A DNA stretch of 64,000 nt from an uncultured Gemmatimonadales bacterium (GTDB lineage Bacteria; Gemmatimonadota; Gemmatimonadetes; Gemmatimonadales; GWC2-71-9): the NCBI GenBank assembly GCA_963798915.1, contig CAWCVB010000002.1:704001-768000 (forward strand). The letters are read 5' to 3'. Under the pieces are notes generated by a model that did not search any database, had not been told where the DNA came from, and saw only the letters and a list, made by a program, of their open reading frames with translations. Within the stretch, counting starts at the first letter, position 1. Each line of letters starts with the position of its first letter. Positions 5,026 through 31,354 of this stretch are shown piece by piece. The translations under genes were made by a program, and so were the position numbers.

Positions 5026-5493
5026 CTAGCCGCGCAGCCTGGGAGAGGCGGCCAGGACGTCCAGCAGCGGAACCTGTGCCGGCAGAATGCGGCGGCGGGC
5101 CTCGTCCAGCGAAAACCACTCGGCGCGATCCACTTCCGGATAATGATGAATTCGGCCTGAGCCTCTGGGCCACTCCACCGCAAACATGCTGCTGGTGAGC
5201 GTCTGCGGATCAAAGTCTCCCTCGAGGGCCCACGCATGCACCAGCTTTCCGCCCCGCTGCTTCACATGCCCCAACGCAAATGGCTCACCCACCGGCTCCA
5301 ATCCCGTCTCTTCACGGAATTCGCGCCGGGCGGCGGCAAGCAGGTCCTCGCCGGGCGCCACCTCGCCCTTGGGCAGTGACCACGCACCAAGATCCTTGCG
5401 TGCCCAGAACGGCCCGCCGAGGTGAACCAGCAGGACCTCGGGTCCAGAGGGCCGCCGGCGAAAGAGAATGAGTCCGGCCGAGATCACGGGCAT
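5026..5493 (-). CDS. NUDIX hydrolase
   Basis: GGPFWARKDLGAWSLPKGE followed by the Nudix box AARREFREETG. Confidence 0.9.
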   Translation of the reverse strand: MPVISAGLILFRRRPSGPEVLLVHLGGPFWARKDLGAWSLPKGEVAPGEDLLAAARREFREETGLEPVGEPFALGHVKQRGGKLVHAWALEGDFDPQTLTSSMFAVEWPRGSGRIHHYPEVDRAEWFSLDEARRRILPAQVPLLDVLAASPRLRG

Positions 5494-5621
5494 CCCGGGA
5501 AGTAGGAGCCGACGCGGGCAAGCGCAAGTACCGCGCGGGCACATGCAATTTGGAGGTACCTTGACTGGGACCGGGCCCGGCCCGCCTATCATCCACCCTC
5601 TCCTTCCACTCGGGACAGCCC

Positions 5622-7323
5622 ATGACGTCTCGCCGGGACTTTGTGCAGCAGGGCGCGCTCGGCATTGCCGCCCTGTCCGCACCCGCCACCATCCTCGTCT
5701 CGCCCCGTCGCATGCACGCTCGTGCTGCGTCACCCGGTATGCCCGACCTGCGGCGGCCGCCAGATCTCGTCGCCGCGGAAATTCCGGAGCGGAGTGCTTC
5801 TCGCCCAGGCCTCCGGCGGCGAGCGCTGGGAGGGAGCCGGGCTCGCCATCAGGATCAGCGACACGGCGGGCGGGATGCGTGTCGCGCTGTCTGCGCCGGG
5901 CGTGGCCGTCAGGCGACTTCACCTTCGCTGGCGAATGCGGATGGACTCCGCCCGGCTGCTGCTTGGCGATGCCTGGGAGCGGGCCTACGGCGATCTGGAA
6001 TGGCGCGGCATGGTGCCTGACCGGGTCTTGCCCTGGTACGCAGCCCTCTGGGATGGCGACCGCGCGCACTGCCTCGGTGTCCAGACCGGCGCGGGTGCAT
6101 TCTGCTTCTGGCAGGTCGATCCTGAAGGCGTGAGTCTCTGGGCCGATGTACGGAGCGGCGGAATGGGCGTCGAGCTGGGACGGCGCTCACTACATGTCTG
6201 CACCATCATTGCGCACGCCGGCGATGCGGGCGAAAGCGCTTTCTCGGCGATTCATGCTTTCTGCCGCCAGATGTGTCCGGCGCCAAGGCTTCCGTCGCAG
6301 CCGGTCTATGGAACCAATGACTGGTACTGGGCTTACGGCAAAAACAGCGGCGTGTCGGCCTTGCGCGATGCCGAGACCATCGTCGCGCTGTCACCAGGCG
6401 GCGCGAACCGGCCTTTCAGTGTCATTGACGACGGCTGGCAACCGGGACGAGGAGCCGCGAAGGCGGACGCCGGCAGGTGGGATCATGGCAACGAGAAATT
6501 CCCGGACATGCCGGCCACGGCGGCTGCCATCAGGCGCGCGGGTGCGCGACCGGGCATCTGGATCCGGCCGCTGGAGGCGCCATCGGACGCTCCCGAGAGT
6601 TGGCGGCTTCCCCGAGAACACTCGACGCTCGATCCGACAGTGGCCGGCGTGCGCGAGAAGATCACCGGGGACATTCGCCGGCTGGCCGACTGGGGATTCG
6701 AACTCATCAAGCATGACTATTCGACCTATGACCTGATGGGCCGATGGGGCTTTGCCATGGGTGCGGCGCTCACCGACGACAACTGGACCTTCGCCGAGGG
6801 GCCCATCCGGACCACTGCCGAAGTGATTGACGGGCTTTACCGCACCATGCGCGAGGCGGCGGGCGAGGCCATGCTCCTGGGATGCAACACGATCAGCCAT
6901 CTCTCCGCGGGTCACTTCGAGATGTGCCGCATCGGCGACGACACCAGTGGCACCGAGTGGTTGCGGACCCGGAAGATGGGCGTGAATGCATTGGCCTTTC
7001 GCGGGCCGCAGCATGGCGCCTTCTACGCTGCCGATCCCGATTGCGTTGGCGTCACCACCCACATTCCGTGGGAGGAGAATCGCCAGTGGCTCGACCTGCT
7101 GGCACGCAGTGGGACCATGCTGTTTGTCTCGCTCGCTCCGGATGCGCTTGATGATGCCAAGCGTCGTGACCTGCGCTCGGCCCTGGCGGTCGCGGCCCAG
7201 TCGCAGCCGTTGGGTGAGCCGCAGGACTGGCAGCGGAGCACCTGGCCCGAGCGGTGGCGGCTGACGGGCGACCAGCAGTCCTACGATTGGATCGGACCTG
7301 AAGGAATTTCGTCACCGTCATGA
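5622..7323 (+). CDS. Tat-exported glycoside hydrolase (GH36/GH27-like TIM barrel), one frameshift near 5790
   Basis: SRRDFV twin-arginine signal in the 5622 frame. The 5641 frame carries VIDDGWQ, ELIKHDYS, CRIGDD and DPDCV, typical of clan GH-D alpha-galactosidases. Confidence 0.75.
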
Positions 7324-21182: not shown

Positions 21183-24100
21183 TCACCCTTGGTCCATCAT
21201 CGTGACCTCGACCGGTTCCTGGTCCCGCAGGACCTCCCGCACCGCCAGGTGCGGCTGCCGGGCGAGCTGCCGTCGGCGCCAGAGCAGGTAGATCGCGGGA
21301 ATGACCGCGAGGGTGAGCACGCTGGCGGTGAGCATGCCACCCACCATGGGCGAGGCGATCCGTCGCATGACGTCCGCCCCCGTTCCTGAACTCCAGAGGA
21401 TCGGCGCCAGGCCGGCGATGATGGCGGTGACCGTCATGACCACAGGGCGGAGCCGCTCCAGCGCGCCGTCCCGGACCGCCGCCACAACATCGGCTGGGCC
21501 CTGCATGCGCCCTTCCAGGCTGCGGCGGTGGAACGCCTCATCCAGGTAGATGAGCATCACGACGCCGGTCTCCGCCGCGACTCCGGCCAGCGCGATAAAG
21601 CCGACCCAGACTGCCACACTGGTGTTGTAGCCCAGCCCCCAGAGGAACCACACGCCGCCCACCAGCGCGAACGGCAGCGCCAGCATCACGATGAGCGCCT
21701 CGGGGACGCTCCTGAAGTTGAAATAGAGAAGCAGGAAGATGATCCCGAGGGTGACGGGAACCACGGTGCGCATCTTGTGGGCGACCCGCTGCATGAACTC
21801 GTACTGCCCGCTCCAGACCAGCGTATATCCGCTGGGCAGCGTAAGCTGCGCGGGCCACCGCCTGCTGCGCATCGCGCACATAGCTGCCCACGTCGCGCTC
21901 GCCGTTGTCCACGAAGATCGTGGTCACCGGGAATGCGTTCTCGGTCTTGACCGCCATCGGTCCCTGGACGATGCGGACCGCGGCCACCTGGCCCAGCGGA
22001 ATCTGCCGGCCGCCCATGGCGGGCACCACCACTTCCTTGAGCTTCTCGACGTTGTCCCGCAGCTCCCGGGGATAGCGCACGTTGACGGCATACCGCTCGC
22101 GCCCCTCAACGGTCATGGCGGCGGTGAGGCCGCCGACGGTGGCCATGATGGCGTTGTGGATATCACCCACGTTGAGTCCGTAGCGCGCCGCCTCGGTCCG
22201 GTCGACGTCGATGTCAACGTAATAGCCGGACACGCCGCGTTCGGCAAAGGCGCTTCGGGTGCCGGGTACGCGCTGCATGATGCGCTCGACCCGCTCACCC
22301 AGCATCTGGAGCGTATCAAGGTCGGGACCGAAGATCTTGATGCCGACGGGGGTGCGGATGCCGGTGGCCAGCATGTCGATCCGTCCCTTGATGGGCATGG
22401 TCCAGGCGTTGGTCACGCCCGGCATCCGGGTGGCCCGGTCCATGGCAGCCACGATCCGCTCATAGGTGAGCCCGGGGCGCCATTCCGACTCGGGCTTCAG
22501 CGTCACGGTCGTCTCATACATGTCCAGCGGGGCAGGGTCAGTGGCCGTTGACGCGCGGCCCACCTTGCCCAGTACTCGTGTCGACTTCCGGGAACGATGC
22601 TAGCACGCTGTCCTGGTAGCGCATGATGTCGCGTGCCTGCGCGATCGACACGCCGGGTACGGTCGTGGGCATGAAGAGGATCGTGCCCTCATGCAGCGGC
22701 GGCATGAACTCGCTGCCGAGGCGGCGCCACGGCAGAATCGTGAGCGCGAGCACGGCCACCGCTGACAGGATGACGGTCCACGGTCGTCGAAGCGCGAAGT
22801 CGATCACGGGCCGGTAGAGCCGCTGCAGGATGCGGTTGACCGGGTTCTCCCGCTCCGGGCGGATGTTTCCCCGGACCAGATATCCCATCAGCACGGGCAC
22901 CAGCGTGATCGACAGCAACGCCGCTCCGGCCATCGCAAAGGTCTTGGTAAACGCCAGCGGCTTGAAGAGCCGGCCTTCCTGCTGCTCCAGGCTGAAGACC
23001 GGCAGGAAGCTGAAGGTGATGATGAGCAGGGAAAAGAAGAGCGGCGGCCCCACCTGCTTGGCGCTCTCCAGCACGATCTCCCATCGCGACGTGCCCGGCT
23101 GCGCCCGCTCCAGGTGCTTGTGCATGTTCTCGATCATGACGATTGCCGCGTCCACCATGGCGCCGATGGCGATGGCGATGCCGCCCAGGCTCATGATGTT
23201 GGCATTCACCCCGATGGCGCGCATCACCAGGAAGGAGATCAGGATGCCCAATGGCAGGGTGATGATCGCGACCAGCGCCGAGCGGAAATGCAGCAGGAAG
23301 AGCATGGCCACCGCGGCGACGATCAGCGATTCTTCGATCAGCTTGTTCCGCAGGGTCTCGACCGCCCGGTGAATGAGGTCGCTGCGGTCGTAGGCGGTGA
23401 CGAGGCGCACACCGGCCGGGAGGCCGCGTTGAATGTCGGCGAGACGCGCCTTGACTGCCTCGATGGTCTTGAGCGCATCGGAGCCGAAGCGCATGACCAC
23501 AATGCCCGCCACCACCTCGCCCTTTCCATTGAGATCCGCCGCTCCCCGCCTCGGCGCTGGACCTACCTGAACATTGGCGACGTCGGCCACCCGGATGGGC
23601 GTCCCGTTCATGGTGGCGCCGACGGTAACGTCCTCGATGTCGGCCACGCCCTGGAGATAGCCCAGGCCGCGGATCATGTACTCCCGTCCGCCCATTTCCA
23701 GCACGCGGGCGCCGATGTCCACGTTGTGCGATCCGATTGCCTGTGCCACTCGTGTGACCGGGATGCTGAAGGCCCGCAGCCGCTCCGGGTCCACCTCCAC
23801 TTGATACTGTTTCTGGAATCCGCCCAGGCTCGCCACTTCGGACACGCCGGGAACCGCGGTGAGCTGGTAACGGATGTACCAGTCCTGGAGCGTCCTGAGC
23901 TGCGCCAGGTCCAGACTGTCGGACTCCAGCACGTACTCGAAGACCCAGCCCACGCCCGTGGCATCGGGACCCAGCGTCGGCTCCACCCCAGCGGGAAGGT
24001 TCTTCTGCACGCCATTCAGGTACTCCAGCACCCGGCTGCGGGCCCAGTAGATGTCGGTGCCGTCCTCGAAGATCACGTACACAAGACTGAGCCCGAAGAA

Positions 24101-24358
24101 CGAATAGCCCCGCACCACCCGCGCACCGGGCACCTTGAGCATCTCGGACGTGATGGGATAGGTGACCTGGTCCTCGACAATGCCCGGGGCCTGTTCAGCA
24201 AAGTCGGTCTGGATGATGACCTGGACGTCCGACAGGTCTGGAATGGCGTCGAGCGGGGTGCTGCGCATGGCCCATACACCGCCAGCGACCAGCGCGACGG
24301 TTGCCAGCAGGACCAGGAAGCGGTTCCGCAGCGACCAGGCAATGATGGCGTTAATCAT
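21183..24358 (-). CDS. cusA: CusA/SilA-type heavy-metal RND efflux permease, frameshifted near 22580 and 21855
   Basis: DAIPDLSDVQV, LGPDATGVGW, GAMVDAAIVMIEN, FMPPLHEG, ATDPAPLDMYET, WTMPIKGRIDML, ERLRPVVMT spread over three frames. Confidence 0.9.
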
Positions 24359-25577
24359 GGGAATGTCCCGCCTCGGCGGATGACGGCGACGGATTCACAT
24401 GCTGCATGCCCGGCATCGAGGCACCGGTGGTACCCAGGCGCGATTCGGCGTCCACCAGGAAGTTGGCGGAGCCGACAATCATCTCTCCGTCCTGCAACCC
24501 GCTCAGGACCTGGACGCGCTCACCCGCGCGGGCGCCGAGCACGATCTCGCGCGGCGAGAGCATGCCGCCCGAGTCGCGCACGAAGACCAGGTTCCGTTCA
24601 CCGGTGGCGATCACGGCGGCCGTGGGCACCGAGAGGTACCGTTCGCTGAGGTCGGAGTCGAAGTAGATGGTGGCGAACATGCCCGGTTTGAGACGGAGGT
24701 CGCGGTTGGGCACCGTGACCCGCACCCGGTTGGTGCGGCTATGCACGTCCACCGTCGGATACACGAAGCTCACGCGTCCCATCACATGCTCGCCCGGGTA
24801 GGCCGACACCTCGATGTGCGCCTGGGTGCCGGTGCGAACGAACTTGAGGTCCTGCTCGAACATCTCGCCTTCCACCCAGACGTCGCGCAGGTCGGCGACG
24901 CGATAGAGCTTCTCGCCCGGCATCACCCGCTGACCCAGCAGGACGTTCTTCTCCAGCACAATGCCATCGACCGGCGACACCAGCGCCAGCGTCTTGGTGA
25001 CCTCGCCGGTCCGCTCCAACCGGGCGATCTGGCCCGGCGAGATATCCCACCATGCCAGCCGCCGCCGGGCGGATTCCAGCGTGGCCTGGGCGCCGATCCA
25101 CGCCTCGCCGGCCGAGCTGTCCACCGCCTGCGCCAGTCGCCGGGCCGTGAGGAACTCCTCCTGCGCGGCAACCAGGTCGGGACTATAGATCGAGAGCAGG
25201 GGCTGGCCCCGATGCACCGACTCGCCGGTGGTGTTGACGTCGAGTCGTTCGACATACCCGGTCACCTTGGGGGTGACATCGGCGACATTCTGCTCCGGCG
25301 CCAGAATTTCACCCACCGTGCGGATGGTTCTGGTGAGCGGTTCCCGCCCGACCCGGGTATAAGTCACGCCCAGCGCCTGCTCCTGCTGCGCTGTCAGATG
25401 CACCGGCTGGCGGACGGCGGCACCCGTGCTGTCCATGGCACCCTGTGTCCCTCCCGCCTGCATTCGTGCATGCTCGTCGGGGGTCATCCCCGTCATGGTC
25501 GATCCTGGTTCGGGAGACTTGCCGCACCCGGTGATGCCCAGGGCCACGATCAGCGCCGCGCTCAGCATCGTTCTCAT
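24351..25577 (-). CDS. cusB: RND periplasmic adaptor (CusB-like)
   Basis: Lipobox ITGC, Met/His-rich termini, YSPDLVAAQEEFL, LKPGMFA, FLVDAESRL; overlaps the cusA start. Confidence 0.9.
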   Translation of the reverse strand: MRTMLSAALIVALGITGCGKSPEPGSTMTGMTPDEHARMQAGGTQGAMDSTGAAVRQPVHLTAQQEQALGVTYTRVGREPLTRTIRTVGEILAPEQNVADVTPKVTGYVERLDVNTTGESVHRGQPLLSIYSPDLVAAQEEFLTARRLAQAVDSSAGEAWIGAQATLESARRRLAWWDISPGQIARLERTGEVTKTLALVSPVDGIVLEKNVLLGQRVMPGEKLYRVADLRDVWVEGEMFEQDLKFVRTGTQAHIEVSAYPGEHVMGRVSFVYPTVDVHSRTNRVRVTVPNRDLRLKPGMFATIYFDSDLSERYLSVPTAAVIATGERNLVFVRDSGGMLSPREIVLGARAGERVQVLSGLQDGEMIVGSANFLVDAESRLGTTGASMPGMQHVNPSPSSAEAGHSHD

Positions 25578-26858
25578 CAGTCCAGTTCCTCCGTACCCAG
25601 CAAGGCGCCGATGCGTGCCCTGGCCTGCTGCCAGGATGCTGCGAGGCGCAACACATCGATCTCGTATTGATTCACGGTCATTTCATTCTGGATCAGCGTC
25701 TGGAAATCGACCCGGCCGACCCGGTACGCGGAGAGCGCCGACTCCACCGCGGCGCGCGCCTGGGGCAGGATCGCCGTTCGGTACAGATCGGCCAGCTGCC
25801 GTGCCTGTTCGGCCTCGGCGCGTTGCTCGGTCAATTGAGCCCAGGTCTCGTTGTAGAGATTCTGTGCGTTCGCCTCCGCCCGGGCCTGGGTGGCGGCCAT
25901 CTCCCGACGCAGGGGGAGCTGGCGCTTGCCGGCCCAGATGGGAAGACTCACGCCCAGCGCGATACTGACCATGTCATCGAATTGGGGTCGCTGGCCGTAG
26001 CCCACGGAGAGCATCAGATCGGGGTAGAGAGTTCGGCGTGCCGCACGGTAGCCGGCGTGCGCGGCCTGCACTCGTTCGGAGGCGGCCGCCAGTGCGGGCC
26101 GGTGGCGCAGGGCGACCGCAATGAGGGAGTCCGCTGATGGCAGCAGGTCTCCTGGCGCTGGAAGGACCAATGCACCGACTGGCTCGGTTGCGTTCCGGCC
26201 CAGCAGCGCGTTGAACCGGGCCGCCGTCGCCTCACGCTGCTGCTCGAGCGTGGCGATGTCGCCACTCATCCGGGCGATGGCCACCTGGGCCTGCAGTACG
26301 TCCTGCTGCAGGCCCTCGCCGCTCGCGTATCGACTCTGGGAGACCCGGAAGAAATCGCGCAGCAGATCCCGGGTCCGATTCATCACCGTGAGTGCCCGGT
26401 CCATGGAAGCCAGTGCATAGTAGGAGACGGTGACCTGGGCGGTGAGCTGCAGGTCGGCCTCATCGGCCTCCAGCGCCCCGGCGCGCGAGAGATGCACCGA
26501 TTGGTCCCGCTCCAGGCCGAGCTTGCCCGGCCAGGGCAGCATCTGGGTCACGGTCGCCTGATTCATGGTCATCGCCTCGCCGGTGCCAAATCCGGTTATC
26601 GGGCGGTTCATGAGTCCCAAGGTGAGCCGCGGGTCTGGAAGGACCCCCATGCGGGACGCCCGTTCCGCATCGGCCAGCGCCGTGCTGCGCGCGGCCTTGA
26701 GCGCCGGGTTCTGCTGGTGGGCGAGACGCACGGCGTCGTCCAGTCGCAGGGTGTCACCGGCCGAGCATCTGCGCAGCAAGTCGAGCCGGGCTCAGCAGGG
26801 CGATCGTGAACACCAGGCCCAGAGACAGCGGGCCGGTGCATAGTCTTGGCAGGGACAT
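25577..26858 (-). CDS. TolC family outer-membrane factor (CusC-like), frameshift near 26765
   Basis: GAGGAGAGGT RBS, then ATG 26858 encoding signal peptide MSLPRLCTGPLSLGLVFTIALLSPARLAAQ; body in another frame (LPDPRL, PWPGKL, QQDVLQAQV, YRVGRVDF). Confidence 0.85.
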
Positions 26859-26946
26859 ACCTCTCCTCGTCCGCGAGCGATGATTGAGCGTAGGACCCGG
26901 CGCGCCGACCTTCGACGCGACGGGACACACATCAACTGGGAGAGGT
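26859..26946 (-). promoter_or_regulatory. stem-loop sequestering the RBS of the TolC-like gene
   Basis: On the mRNA, ACCUCUCC (+ coordinates 26939-26946) is complementary to GGAGAGGU (+ coordinates 26859-26866). An inner hairpin CCCG-u-CGCGUCGA-agg-UCGGCGCG-c-CGGG lies between them. Confidence 0.7.
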
Positions 26947-27278
26947 CAGGCTTGGGGAGGCGGTGGGAGCGGTGCGGCGACGTCGGCCGGGAGGAGTCGG
27001 TCGGTATCCTCGACCGAGATACGATGCACAGGCATGGCAAACAACACGGTCAGCACTGATGGCAGCCCAGCCGCCGAAGGCAGGTTGCATGGGGTCGGCA
27101 TGGAGCATTCGGTCGAGGATGGCGCGCTTGGCATCGTTGGCATGTGACCACGTGCTGTCGCCGCCTGGTGGCAGGCAGCGGCGGGCGCCATGCGGCACAG
27201 CGCCGGGGTGGCGACTGAGAACAGCTGCGCCACGAACAACAGAGCTGTCAGCATCCGAGCAATCAGCACGAGCCGCAC
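26946..27278 (-). CDS. CutF/CruR(DUF2946)-like leader protein: signal segment, Cys/His/Met cluster, C-terminal polyproline
   Basis: Hydrophobic N-terminus, LCRMAPAAACH..HMPTM, ECSMPTPC, ends APLPPPPQA*. True start may be GTG 27269 (8 nt after GAGGAG). Confidence 0.7.
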   Translation of the reverse strand: MRLVLIARMLTALLFVAQLFSVATPALCRMAPAAACHQAATARGHMPTMPSAPSSTECSMPTPCNLPSAAGLPSVLTVLFAMPVHRISVEDTDRLLPADVAAPLPPPPQA

Positions 27279-27682
27279 TCCTCACTTCAATCCTCACGCG
27301 CCCGAACGGCGATCCGGACCACCGGCCGGTTGAAGCCAAATCTGGCCCACGTGCCTGTGAATTGCGTGAAAGGTTCGTGAACCGTCGTTCAAGGTATCGG
27401 ATTGTCACCCGCCATGCCTCGCCAGCGGCGGCGCACTGAAGCGTGACGGCGGCACTGTCGCCGGCATGCCGCGCGAGGGTTGGCGCCATCGCACGCATGG
27501 TCCGACCGACCCGGACGCACAACCGGTTGACCAGGAGACAGTTAGGGACACAGGTCGGCTGGGTTGCAGGACGGGTTGCACGTGCTCCGTAACGGGTGGT
27601 CGACCGGGCTGTTCGCGTATTGTCGGGCGCCGCAACCGGTCGCTGCGTCGCGCCCCGCCTGCCCAGCTGCTACCCTTGTCCC

Positions 27683-29297: not shown

Positions 29298-29312
29298 CTC
29301 TCGGGGAGTCCG

Positions 29313-29999
29313 GTGACCGCCTCCGGTCCGGCTGATGCCTATACCAGGTCGGTCGAGGATTATCTCAAGGCCGTCTACCGGCTGTCATCCGACGAGCGCG
29401 CCGCATCCACCACCGAAATTGCCCAGCGGCTGGCGCTGTCGCCCGCGTCGGTCAGCGCCATGATCAAGCGCCTGGCCGAACAGGGCCTGGTGGAACATGA
29501 GCGCTATCGCGGAGTGCGCCTCACGTCCGAGGGGCGGCGCGCCGCGCTGCGCATTGTCCGCCGCCACCGGCTGGTTGAGACCTATCTGGTCGAGTTTCTC
29601 GGGTATGACTGGGACAACGTCCACGCCGAGGCGGAAAAGCTGGAGCATGCCATGTCGGATGCGCTGGTGGAGCGGATGGCTGCGGCGCTCGGGCATCCTT
29701 CGTTTGACCCGCATGGCGATCCGATTCCCGCCGCCGACGGCAGCGTGTCCGATGTCAAGGCCACGCCGCTCACCGGAATGGCGCCCGGCGCCTGCGGGGT
29801 GCTTGCCCGGGTGGAGCTGGGTGACTCCGAGCGGCTTCGCTACCTGGGCTCGCTGGGGATCCGGCCGGGGCTCCGGTTCACCGTGCTGGACCGCGCCCCC
29901 TTCGACGGGCCCGTGACGATCGAGACATCGTCGGGCGCCAAGGTGCTGGGCTACGCGATCGCCACTGGATTGCTGTGCATGCCCGAGGCATCGAGATGA
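29313..29999 (+). CDS. mntR: DtxR/MntR family metal-dependent repressor with FeoA domain
   Basis: [34 protein letters not shown]. Confidence 0.93.
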
Positions 30000-31354
30000 G
30001 CGCGGCATCGCATCCGCCGGTGGAGGCGCACGTCGGCTGGCGGCGACCGCGCAAGATGCCCAGCCTGCCGGAATCGTATCGCACCATCAAGGTTCCGGGC
30101 GGCCCCGGGTTCTGGCGCAAGGCGCTGGCCTTTGCCGGGCCGGGCTATCTGGTGGCCGTGGGGTATATGGACCCTGGGAACTGGGCCAGCGACCTTGCCG
30201 GTGGGGCCCAGTTCGGGTACACGCTGCTGAGCGTCATCCTGCTCTCCAACCTGATGGCCATGCTGCTGCAGGGACTCGCCGTTCGTCTGGGCATTGGCAC
30301 GGGGCGGGACCTGGCCCAGGCCTGCCGGGACCATTATCCGGTTCCGGTCGCCATGGGGCTGTGGGTGCTCTGCGAAATTGCCATCGCGGCGTGCGACCTG
30401 GCCGAGGTGATCGGCAGCGCCATTGCGCTCAATCTGCTGTTCGGCATTCCCCTGCTGTGGGGCGTGTGCCTCACGGCGCTCGACGTACTGATCATCCTCT
30501 TTCTGCACCAGCGCGGCTTCCGCTGGCTCGAGGCGATCGTGATCGGCTTGATTGCGGTCGTCGGTGCCTGCTTCGCGACCGAGCTGTTTCTGTCCCGGCC
30601 CGACGCAGGCGAGGTGGCGCGCGGACTGCTTCCGACCACGCAGATTCTCTCCAACCCGATGATGCTCTACATCGCCATCGCCATTCTCGGCGCGACGGTG
30701 ATGCCCCACAACCTGTACCTGCATTCGTCCATCGTGCAGACCCGGCAGTTCGGCGACGACCTCGAGTCCCGGCGGGAAGCGATCCGTTTTTCGACCTTCG
30801 ATTCGACGGTTGCGCTGCTGTTCGCCTTCTTCATCAACGGCGCCATCCTCATCCTGAGTGCCGCGACCTTCCACTTCTCCGGCTTCAGCGGCGTCGCCGA
30901 CATCGCGGACGCGCACCGACTGCTGGCGCCCCTCCTGGGCACCACGGCCGCAAGCGTGCTGTTTGCGGTCGCGCTTCTGGCATCAGGGCAGAACTCCACC
31001 ATCACCGGCACGCTGGCGGGCCAGATCGTGATGGAGGGTTTTCTCAACCTCAGGCTGGCGCCCTGGCTGCGCCGGCTGGTCACCCGCGGCATCGCCATCG
31101 TGCCGGCCATCATCGTGACGGCGATCTACGGCGTCAGGGGTACCGTGGCCCTGCTCATCCTCAGCCAGGTCATCCTGTCGTTGCAGCTCTCGTTCGCGGT
31201 GATTCCGCTGGTGCAGTTCACCGGCGACAAGGCCAAGATGGGCCCGCTGGTGATCCGGCCCATCACCAAGGTCGCGGCATGGAGTGTGGCGGGTGTGATT
31301 CTGAGTCTCAATGCCTGGCTGCTGGTGAGCACCTTCCGGGAGTGGCTCTCCTGA
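29996..31354 (+). CDS. mntH: Nramp family Mn2+ transporter
   Basis: [32 protein letters not shown] overlap with mntR. Confidence 0.95.

Follow-up and report, generated by a model that had tools for sequence, protein, structure and literature searches.

We describe a leader peptide gene that precedes a copper/silver-type efflux operon in a 64,000-nt stretch of the genome of an uncultured Gemmatimonadales bacterium (contig CAWCVB010000002.1, positions 704,001 to 768,000; hereafter the window, with positions counted from its first letter). We found that the leader belongs to a family of Gemmatimonadota proteins with invariant cysteines and an invariant proline run close to the stop codon. The family members occupy a fixed place before genes for outer-membrane efflux proteins (OEPs), and the RNA between the two genes contains a conserved helix, co-varying between clades, that joins the leader stop codon to the next gene's Shine-Dalgarno (SD) sequence. 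Since this design matches that of CutF in Rhodobacter, we read the element as a translational switch; a CutF-type switch ahead of a Cu(I)/Ag(I) efflux operon of the resistance-nodulation-division (RND) type is in our view the probable interpretation. The parts of the element are the following.

26946..27278, minus strand: leader open reading frame (ORF) of 110 aa, stop included in the coordinates; GTG start, TGA stop at 26946-26948.
27192..27275, minus strand: codons for residues 2-29, an N-terminal hydrophobic helix after basic R2/R8 (helix in the AlphaFold2 model; R8, Q18 and P25 conserved).
27168..27197, minus strand: first Cys pair, C28-x7-C36-H37; C28 and C36 are invariant in the nine closest family members (alignment A1) and nearly so in two larger alignments (A4, 25 diverse members; A6, 75 sequences).
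27087..27107, minus strand: second Cys pair, C58-x5-C64, invariant in A1 and A4.
26955..26966, minus strand: PPPP codons P105-P108, followed by Q109, A110 and the stop (C-terminus PLPPPPQA; PPP-x-x-end in the family).
26939..26948, minus strand: 5′ arm of the basal helix (anti-SD), made of the stop TGA and CCTCTCC; the pairing word is A+CCTCTCC, 26939-26946.
26896..26924, minus strand: inner G+C-rich hairpin of the spacer, seen in minimum free energy (MFE) folds.
26859..26866, minus strand: GGAGAGGT, which abuts the ATG; it is both the efflux gene's SD and the 3′ arm of the basal helix.

An earlier reading of the sequence alone had pointed to a co-oriented ORF of about 110 aa before the cusC-like gene, with a signal-like N-terminus, a cluster of metal ligands and a terminal PLPPPPQA. 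All of these are present: basic and then hydrophobic residues begin the protein, H45-M46 lies between the two Cys pairs and the proline run closes it. An alternative in-frame GTG is located at 27269, with GAGGAG 8 nt 5′ of it. The basic residues and the hydrophobic helix are consistent with a predicted signal sequence or signal anchor; the anchor seems equally possible as a cleaved signal, as several clades carry no clear A-x-A cleavage site.

AlphaFold2, run with the 75-sequence alignment, models helix 2-29 confidently (predicted local distance difference test, pLDDT, of 89 and 87 in the first two blocks). The rest of the leader stays below a pLDDT of 50 except for the last block (residues 101-110, mean 87), and the model contains no folded domain past the N-terminal helix. 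Such a model is weak evidence for a sensor peptide rather than a folded periplasmic protein. A Pfam scan of the window leader returned no family at E <= 0.1, and NCBIfam gave no match for the three leaders searched. Two other ORFs overlap the leader in other frames, one of 196 aa (26932..27522) and one of 82 aa (26792..27040); both were rejected as R/S/C-rich off-frame translations without family support.

Homologues of the leader are numerous. A phmmer search of 1.84e9 representative proteins gave six matches, all of similar length, with E values from 4e-23 to 1e-4, and the A4 profile retrieved 123 proteins at E <= 0.001 from a collection of 5.8 billion. Among the 120 A4 matches listed, none has a Pfam domain or a name other than 'hypothetical protein'. 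With the A1 profile the family was found in 11 of the 401 genomes of a class-level sample. The A4 profile found it in 43 of the 401 genomes of a phylum-level sample (a tally that takes in genome G446, whose locus was not used further), including 35 of 166 within the window's own taxonomic family. The members come from Gemmatimonadota (Gemmatimonadales, Gemmatimonadaceae), at loci of the public genome collection. The A4 profile had no match below E = 1e-3 in 61 alphaproteobacterial genomes, and tblastn with the leader had none in 72,556 plasmids. Judged by these searches, the family is real, carries no annotation and is found only in Gemmatimonadota.

Conservation of the leader in relatives had been proposed as a check, and it is precisely the Cys motifs and PPP-x-x-stop that are kept. 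Invariant positions among the 25 diverse members of A4 are C58, C64 and the PPP run, while at least 90% of them keep R8, P25, C36 and P103; C28, invariant among the nine closest members, is present in at least 90% of the 75 sequences. PPP-x-x-end closes 117 of 126 family proteins, the remaining nine of which look truncated, and C-x5-C is found in 125 of the 126. Six loci from another taxonomic family of the same class (L030, L031, L033, L034, L035 and L036) have an extra C-x2-C-x4-C directly before C-x5-C, and their leaders end in PPP(R/Q)(A/S).

The RNA that follows the leader is short. From the stop codon (26946-26948) to the next ATG (26856-26858) the spacer measures 87 nt, and the first base of its pairing word A+CCTCTCC (26939-26946) is the last base of the leader stop codon. 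In the RNAfold MFE structure of 26850-26960 this word pairs with GGAGAGGT as a basal helix, with a total of -44.5 kcal/mol. The 87-nt spacer and the pairing of the stop-codon word with the SD thus agree with the sequence-only reading, as does the fold that it suggested running; its single long stem-loop does not, as the basal helix encloses inner hairpins. We found neither a consensus sigma-70 promoter nor an intrinsic terminator between 26700 and 27700, which also answers the question whether the spacer holds a consensus promoter of its own. Rfam has no family that matches the spacer, its best matches being at chance level and elsewhere. Taken alone, the window makes a weak case; that the element goes beyond chance follows from its conservation in relatives.

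To describe this conservation we used 38 loci gathered by protein search only, a set that is therefore unbiased as to the spacer. As the start of the downstream gene we took an ATG that has an SD-like word upstream and begins a long ORF; such a start could be called in 30 of the 38 loci. The next gene encodes an OEP in all 30 (29 of 29 by Pfam, plus the window), and the spacer is 79-115 nt long, mostly 83-94 nt. In 29 of the 30 spacers, at least five pairs of the MFE structure join a 5′ segment, made of the stop codon and the next 11 nt, to the 26 nt that precede the ATG.

The arms of this helix differ between clades and remain complementary. For example, we found the pairs CCTCTCC/GGAGAGG, CCTCGCC/GGCGAGG, CCTCACC/GGTGAGG, CCTCGG/CCGAGG and TGAACGG/CCGTTCA, and in further clades CCTCTCAA/TTGAGAGG, TCTCTCAC/GTGAGGGG and TTTCTCAC/GTGAGAGA. 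The covariation of SD and anti-SD that had been suggested as a check is hence observed as complementary changes between clades. Cognate arms have a mean duplex energy of -14.4 kcal/mol and non-cognate ones of -11.6. When the 29 distinct arm combinations were permuted 10,000 times, the observed mean was never attained, in a test that is inflated by the kinship of the sequences and whose signal consists of differences between clades. In 25 of the 30 loci, at most 5 of 200 shuffled 5′ arms equal the real arm, with the same inflation.

The inner hairpins were followed with a covariance model built from the main clade, to which 14 protein-found spacers were aligned. In this alignment, which leans toward the model structure, 13 pairs of the inner hairpins are changed on both sides, compared to 7.2 +/- 1.8 in shuffles (1 of 500 shuffles reached 13). 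A consensus from MAFFT and RNAalifold recovered the basal helix and misaligned the inner hairpins. A second set of 41 loci with 32 family members was collected with a degenerate DNA pattern; it is biased, as the pattern requires PPPQA, a stop and CCTCTCC, and it was used only for lineage, spacer architecture and the building of the RNA model.

Several loci depart from the common layout. In a subclade made up of L088, L089, L090, L091, L096 and L099, the leaders end in PPQPPPI[A/S] or PPLPPPII, followed by TGA or TAG and (A/C)GTCG.GTTCCA. There the partner of the word that follows the stop is not the SD but CGACT, some 25 nt before the ATG, which is a different RNA arrangement. In L072 (150-nt spacer) and L048 (103 nt), what looks like a small mobile element, an inverted-repeat insertion with arms GTGCCGTTCCAACT.../...AGTTGGAACGGCAC, separates the inner hairpins from the SD arm without loss of the basal arms. 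In L060 and L092, a PPPQA-stop-CCTCTCC leader is directly followed by the C-terminal part of a CusA-type gene (ACR_tran 742-1019), the OEP, the adaptor and most of the pump gene being missing through deletion or misassembly.

The operon downstream of the window leader consists of the following genes.

26754..26858, minus strand: start of the cusC-like gene, with its ATG, a 34-codon signal-peptide frame and a premature stop; the frame breaks here.
25577..26791, minus strand: body of the outer-membrane efflux gene (OEP), in a frame that differs from that of its own start codon (PF02321, E = 2.9e-33).
24351..25577, minus strand: CusB-type periplasmic adaptor of 408 aa (PF16576, E = 1.1e-76; NCBIfam CzcB/CusB models match too).
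21183..24358, minus strand: CusA-type RND pump in three frames, 22538-24358, 21538-22563 and 21183-21881 (TIGR00914).

A CusA/CzcA-family RND pump, a CusB-type adaptor and an OEP thus stand together, as in CusCBA-type operons, and the first RND piece alone scores 709.7 bits with TIGR00914 (cut-off 701.45). The best solved relatives of the pump are the E. coli CusA chains (E = 6e-66, compared to 2.8e-24 for ZneA). In alignments to these chains, Met aligns with Met at all three positions of the Cu(I)/Ag(I) three-methionine site of CusA, which we take to be M573, M623 and M672. With E. coli CusA as the nearest relative and three aligned methionines, we assign the pump to the copper/silver type. 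EF-P is encoded in the genome.

The absence of CusRS or CueR beside the operon, as noted from the sequence, is borne out: among the flanking ORFs scanned, no two-component or MerR/CueR gene adjoins it. An alpha/beta hydrolase, a NUDIX protein, a DtxR-family repressor and an Nramp gene lie on one side and an LD-carboxypeptidase on the other. The nearest regulator is this DtxR-family metal-dependent repressor with a FeoA domain, which is followed by the overlapping Nramp transporter gene (29298-31351, plus strand); the pair probably serves manganese/iron uptake and is unrelated to the pump operon.

Among the relatives, upstream ORFs were scanned in 24 loci. No two-component gene was seen upstream in these loci, and a regulator gene was found in three of them (MerR in L023 and L097, PadR in L028). 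In L023 (genome G012, contig C118, about 5046-7000) the MerR-family regulator, confirmed by Pfam, is divergent from the leader-pump operon, and beside it are genes that resemble MerT/MerP and mercuric reductase as judged by eye from ORF translations. L004 has a Met/His-rich signal-peptide protein (810-1397; runs such as HHGMMMAPGAMGQMMDGSMMQHMGPAMMKMM) without a Pfam match directly upstream of its leader-pump operon.

We also looked at the start of the leader transcript. A TAnnnT hexamer (TATATT, TAGATT, TATTAT etc.) begins 11-20 nt before the leader start in 19 of 26 relatives (among them L023, L028, L029, L033, L098, L100 and L101) compared to a background of 2.4%, and an SD-like word precedes the start in only 5 of the 26, with start codons assigned by our own heuristic. 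This pattern suggests that most leaders of the family are translated from leaderless or near-leaderless mRNAs. In the window, by exception, the -10-like box is missing (27279-27300), and GAGGAG stands before the second GTG instead. About 75-105 nt upstream of its leader (27354-27382, minus strand) lies a threefold direct repeat TTCAC(G/A) with spacings of 11 and 9 nt, and TTCAC/TTTCAC words also occur upstream of the leaders in L032, L086, L087 and L106. Seen without statistics, the repeat could be a binding site for a response regulator.

In the mechanism that we propose, the first ORF of the operon mRNA would produce the ~110-aa peptide, whose hydrophobic N-terminus would direct the nascent chain to the Sec translocon. 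The two Cys pairs would then lie outside the cytoplasm before the ribosome has finished PPPP-Q-A. While the mRNA is at rest, A+CCUCUCC at and after the leader stop would pair with GGAGAGGU, the SD 87 nt downstream; the spacer would be clamped and initiation blocked. A ribosome lingering on the last leader codons would keep the helix open, and a second ribosome could start the pump genes. Metal on the exported cysteines would change the dwell time of the ribosome at the proline run.

The geometry of the last step can be estimated. Counted from the first P-site base, the helicase of the ribosome lies at about +11 and its 3′ edge at about +15. When the last prolines occupy the P and A sites, the ribosome would extend about as far as the stop codon, where the helix has its foot, and only with the stop codon in the A site would it enclose the whole anti-SD. 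The sequence-only reading had a ribosome stalled at PPPP cover the anti-SD; this may hold for a ribosome on the last codons or the stop, while one paused on PPPP would probably get no further than the stop. A partial opening may be enough; otherwise the ribosome would have to dwell decisively on the last codons or on the stop, or the helix would open on release from the pause. Under these three options the metal response could run in either direction, and it is there that CutF (metal prolongs arrest) and CruR (metal relieves it) differ.

We would go further only tentatively. These leaders may be independently evolved, four-Cys exported arrest peptides of Gemmatimonadota, mostly leaderless, which act as the main or only Cu/Ag sensor of an RND pump that has no dedicated transcription factor, the spacing of PPP, two codons, stop and anti-SD setting the leading edge of the ribosome at the base of the helix. 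This broader proposal strikes us as somewhat doubtful. If it is true, this would be the first RND metal pump under nascent-chain sensing across the membrane, and the CutF design would have arisen more than once.

A number of points weigh against reading the element as a CutF-type switch. Export, stalling, the identity of the metal (Cu/Ag, taken from the type of pump) and the direction of the response are steps that we infer, and by the geometry above a pause at the prolines may not open the helix. Eight of the 38 loci were left out of the helix counts (L034, L088, L090, L091, L092, L096, L103 and L107) for want of a callable start, because of a contig end or because the next gene was not an OEP gene: the next called ORF in L034 is a DUF1573 protein, a CusA fragment directly follows the leader in L092, and L103 lies at a contig end; L096 and L107 nonetheless have an OEP downstream. 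To the kinship that inflates the permutation tests is added that the basal helix is invariant in the window's clade, where the lack of variation leaves no covariation to be seen. In the subclade with PPQPPPI[A/S] endings the arms pair no better than in shuffles (for example L089, 71/200, and L099, 37/200), and the SD of L100 and L104 is in a small hairpin of its own, with the 3′ arm just upstream. Kinship with DUF2946 leaders found no support either: PF11162 (DUF2946; cut-off 23.7 bits), run against the whole genome at E <= 10, matched four other places and not the leader, and hhalign of A4 against 17 alphaproteobacterial ORFs above the Pfam cut-off (alignment A5) gave a probability of 1.2% over 12 columns, all in the N-terminal hydrophobic segment. 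The window itself adds a third-codon-position G+C content (GC3) of 0.73 for the leader ORF, compared to 0.81-0.86 in neighbouring genes, a hairpin that is modest on its own (z = -2.35; 7 of 200 shuffles as good), and an operon whose cusC-like and cusA-like genes are out of frame.

The GC3 and the hairpin z-score are what one would cite for a chance ORF followed by a chance hairpin in G+C-rich DNA, an explanation to which we give virtually no credence, as more than 120 homologues with common motifs, position and RNA design refute it. A more substantial alternative is plain translational coupling, in which the leader would be an exported or membrane-anchored accessory metal-binding protein, as proposed for CzcI, the helix would tie translation of the pump to that of the leader, and the prolines would be a structural tail or a constitutive pause. 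Four cysteines and a central region are indeed conserved as in a functional protein, any terminating ribosome would by the geometry open the helix regardless of metal, and one of the nearest Pfam-named clusters in a language-model search has CzcI in 20% and DUF2946 in 12% of its members, which is a lead only. The strict PPP-x-x-stop (117/126) and an anti-SD abutting the stop are nevertheless hard to explain for an accessory protein; AlphaFold2 gives no fold past the N-terminal helix, and the layout is that of CutF, for which Cu-dependent stalling is reported. We thus consider coupling alone unlikely. Logic like that of CruR, with arrest at the prolines by default, relief by metal, and an output through Rho-dependent termination or mRNA decay in the spacer instead of or besides SD masking, appears quite improbable. 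Bordetella CruR works in this way (PMC9426467), a ribosome paused at PPP would stand just upstream of the helix, so that its release could open it, and the 5′ end of the spacer is C-rich. But copper lowers downstream expression in the CruR case (PMC9426467), the opposite of what an efflux pump needs; the spacers are 79-115 nt long compared to 162 nt given for CruR, direct pairing of the SD in most clades speaks for control at initiation, and the arrest motif is PPP as in CutF and not RAPP.

What the CutF-type reading means for this particular genome depends on three frame breaks within about 5.7 kb, one in cusC near 26756-26791 (after the signal peptide) and two in cusA near 22567-22585 and 21846-21870. 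The RND pieces cover positions 1-609, 611-854 and 854-1045 of the 1051 of TIGR00914 with no coding sequence lost, so the cusA breaks are pure frameshifts. With its pump genes frameshifted, the switch may be a relic in this genome, or the assembly may be faulty; the breaks may be recent decay or a local assembly error. A relic, in which the operon is decaying and leader and hairpin are kept by descent while controlling no working pump, is a serious possibility to which we lean a little less than half way. The three breaks contrast with 25 other window genes that were scanned without finding comparable breaks or split domains, and the window leader is without the -10-like box found just upstream in 19 of 26 relatives. 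One public DNA run held 9% of the sampled words, and no RNA run did; contigs from that run match only parts of cusA, leaving leader and spacer uncovered, and among them a 128-nt contig is identical over 22460-22582, across most of one break site. Against decay, the complete coverage of the RND model is what single-base errors of assembly or very recent changes would leave, the genome was assembled from a metagenome in 17 contigs and is 84.8% complete, the matching run with its 9% may be the source sample, and leader, spacer and SD are all intact.

Textbooks present Cus- and Czc-type efflux pumps as targets of MerR-type regulators or of two-component systems. If a leader peptide detects metal beyond the cytoplasm and sets the translation of the pump genes accordingly, the logic is a different one. 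To our knowledge, experiments have so far established such extracytoplasmic metal-sensing leaders in two cases only, a copper oxidase (CutF) and a TonB-dependent transporter (CruR). With its fixed PPP-x-x-stop, its stop-anchored anti-SD and its clades with different complementary arms, the family would offer a natural test set for RND pumps. New here are a protein family that domain libraries miss, a further phylum for such a switch, a very regular stop/anti-SD design with complementary clade variants and a hint of leaderless mRNAs in most members; the principle of the switch and its statistical association with RND pumps are not. Because these leaders escape domain libraries (0 of the 120 listed homologues with a Pfam domain), their spread is probably underestimated.

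A limited search of the literature gave no experiments on such a leader before an RND pump and nothing relevant on upstream open reading frames of Gemmatimonadetes CusCBA. The sequence-only reading knew of no characterised example on a CusCBA pump; this stands for experiments, but a bioinformatic link to CusC/CzcC-type genes has been published. In PMC9973294, OEP genes (CusC/CzcC/SilC) are the commonest downstream neighbour of 5,334 CutF-like proteins, mostly from Pseudomonadota and Bacteroidota. The string 'Gemmatimonad' is absent from its main text and three supplementary files, the protein list in File S1 lying outside that scope. By the rule given there for CutF-like proteins, the window leader is shorter than 150 aa and has PP within its last 15 residues, and its context agrees as well, a cusC-like OEP gene standing 87 nt away with CusB-like and CusA-like genes behind it (PMC9973294). 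The rule also calls for a Sec signal peptide predicted by SignalP, with which the basic N-terminus and the hydrophobic helix 2-29 would be consistent. With RND neighbours already published and a layout that matches CutF, we see here a known kind of switch and not a new principle.

According to the reports on the cutFOG operon of Rhodobacter capsulatus (PMC9973294; 10.1101/2025.02.05.636593), CutF is exported cotranslationally, binds Cu via periplasmic cysteines and stalls at its C-terminal PPP despite EF-P, whereupon the stem-loop that masks the cutO SD melts. It ends in P109-EPEGPPPRL-118 and has Cys5, Cys12, Cys41 and Cys45 in a mature part of 90 aa (PMC9973294; 10.1101/2025.02.05.636593). 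By our own arithmetic, this places the cysteines of the CutF precursor near 33, 40, 69 and 73 and PPP at 114-116, compared to 28, 36, 58, 64 and PPPP at 105-108 in the window leader. In both, the last Cys lies 42-43 residues before the middle proline, a distance that would put it just outside the tunnel, in or beyond the translocon, when the ribosome is at the prolines.

As far as these accounts describe CutF, the two leaders share a length of ~110-120 aa, an N-terminal Sec-type hydrophobic segment, two similarly placed Cys pairs, PPP followed by two residues and the stop, a short spacer stem-loop that masks the next SD, and the first place in a copper-detoxification operon. The conserved spacer helix that pairs the SD of the next gene, as the CutF mechanism requires, is present in 29 of 30 spacers. 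The two leaders differ in that CutF has C-x6-C and C-x3-C, whereas the Gemmatimonadota family has C-x7-C and C-x5-C, and in that CutF controls a multicopper oxidase, whereas the Gemmatimonadota leader precedes a CusCBA-type outer-membrane component. Moreover the anti-SD of the latter begins at the stop codon itself, unlike that described for CutF. CutF acts in Rhodobacter, while the family described here lives in Gemmatimonadota. Homology to CutF was not detected, the comparison being indirect, via the DUF2946 HMM (hidden Markov model) and profile.

The kinship with CutF/CruR (DUF2946) leaders suggested from the sequence therefore holds for the layout, which copies that of CutF, but not for the protein, for which the HMM and profile-profile tests failed. 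In the 17 true DUF2946 ORFs we found CxxC and, close to the end, an R-x-P-P that does not vary (RAPP-x3-stop), while the window leader has C-x7-C, C-x5-C and PPPPQA; by every sequence test applied, the leader family is not DUF2946. A language-model search ranks unannotated Gemmatimonadota clusters first; the nearest Pfam-named ones are a DUF2946 cluster at 0.95 (22% of members carry the family) and the CzcI/DUF2946 cluster mentioned above at 0.94, all of which we treat as leads only.

CruR (Bp2923) of Bordetella pertussis resembles the window leader in that a small upstream ORF heads a metal-homeostasis operon and encodes a hydrophobic N-terminus, Cys ligands and an arrest motif at the C-terminus (PMC9426467). 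It differs in its C...CxxC and RAPP-x3-stop and in its output, Rho-dependent termination after copper has relieved the arrest, with lower expression of the downstream gene (PMC9426467), and HMM and hhalign comparisons give no relationship to the window family. CzcI of Cupriavidus metallidurans, as described in PMC9973294, is likewise a small protein directly upstream of a czcCBA-type operon and a suggested metal-sensing regulator; according to that paper it is without the C-terminal proline motif. The window leader is without any Pfam match. SecM, VemP and MifM, finally, which are cited in PMC9973294, are exported nascent chains whose arrest melts a stem-loop masking the next SD, as we propose here. 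They monitor the activity of the export machinery and not metal, and use other arrest sequences.

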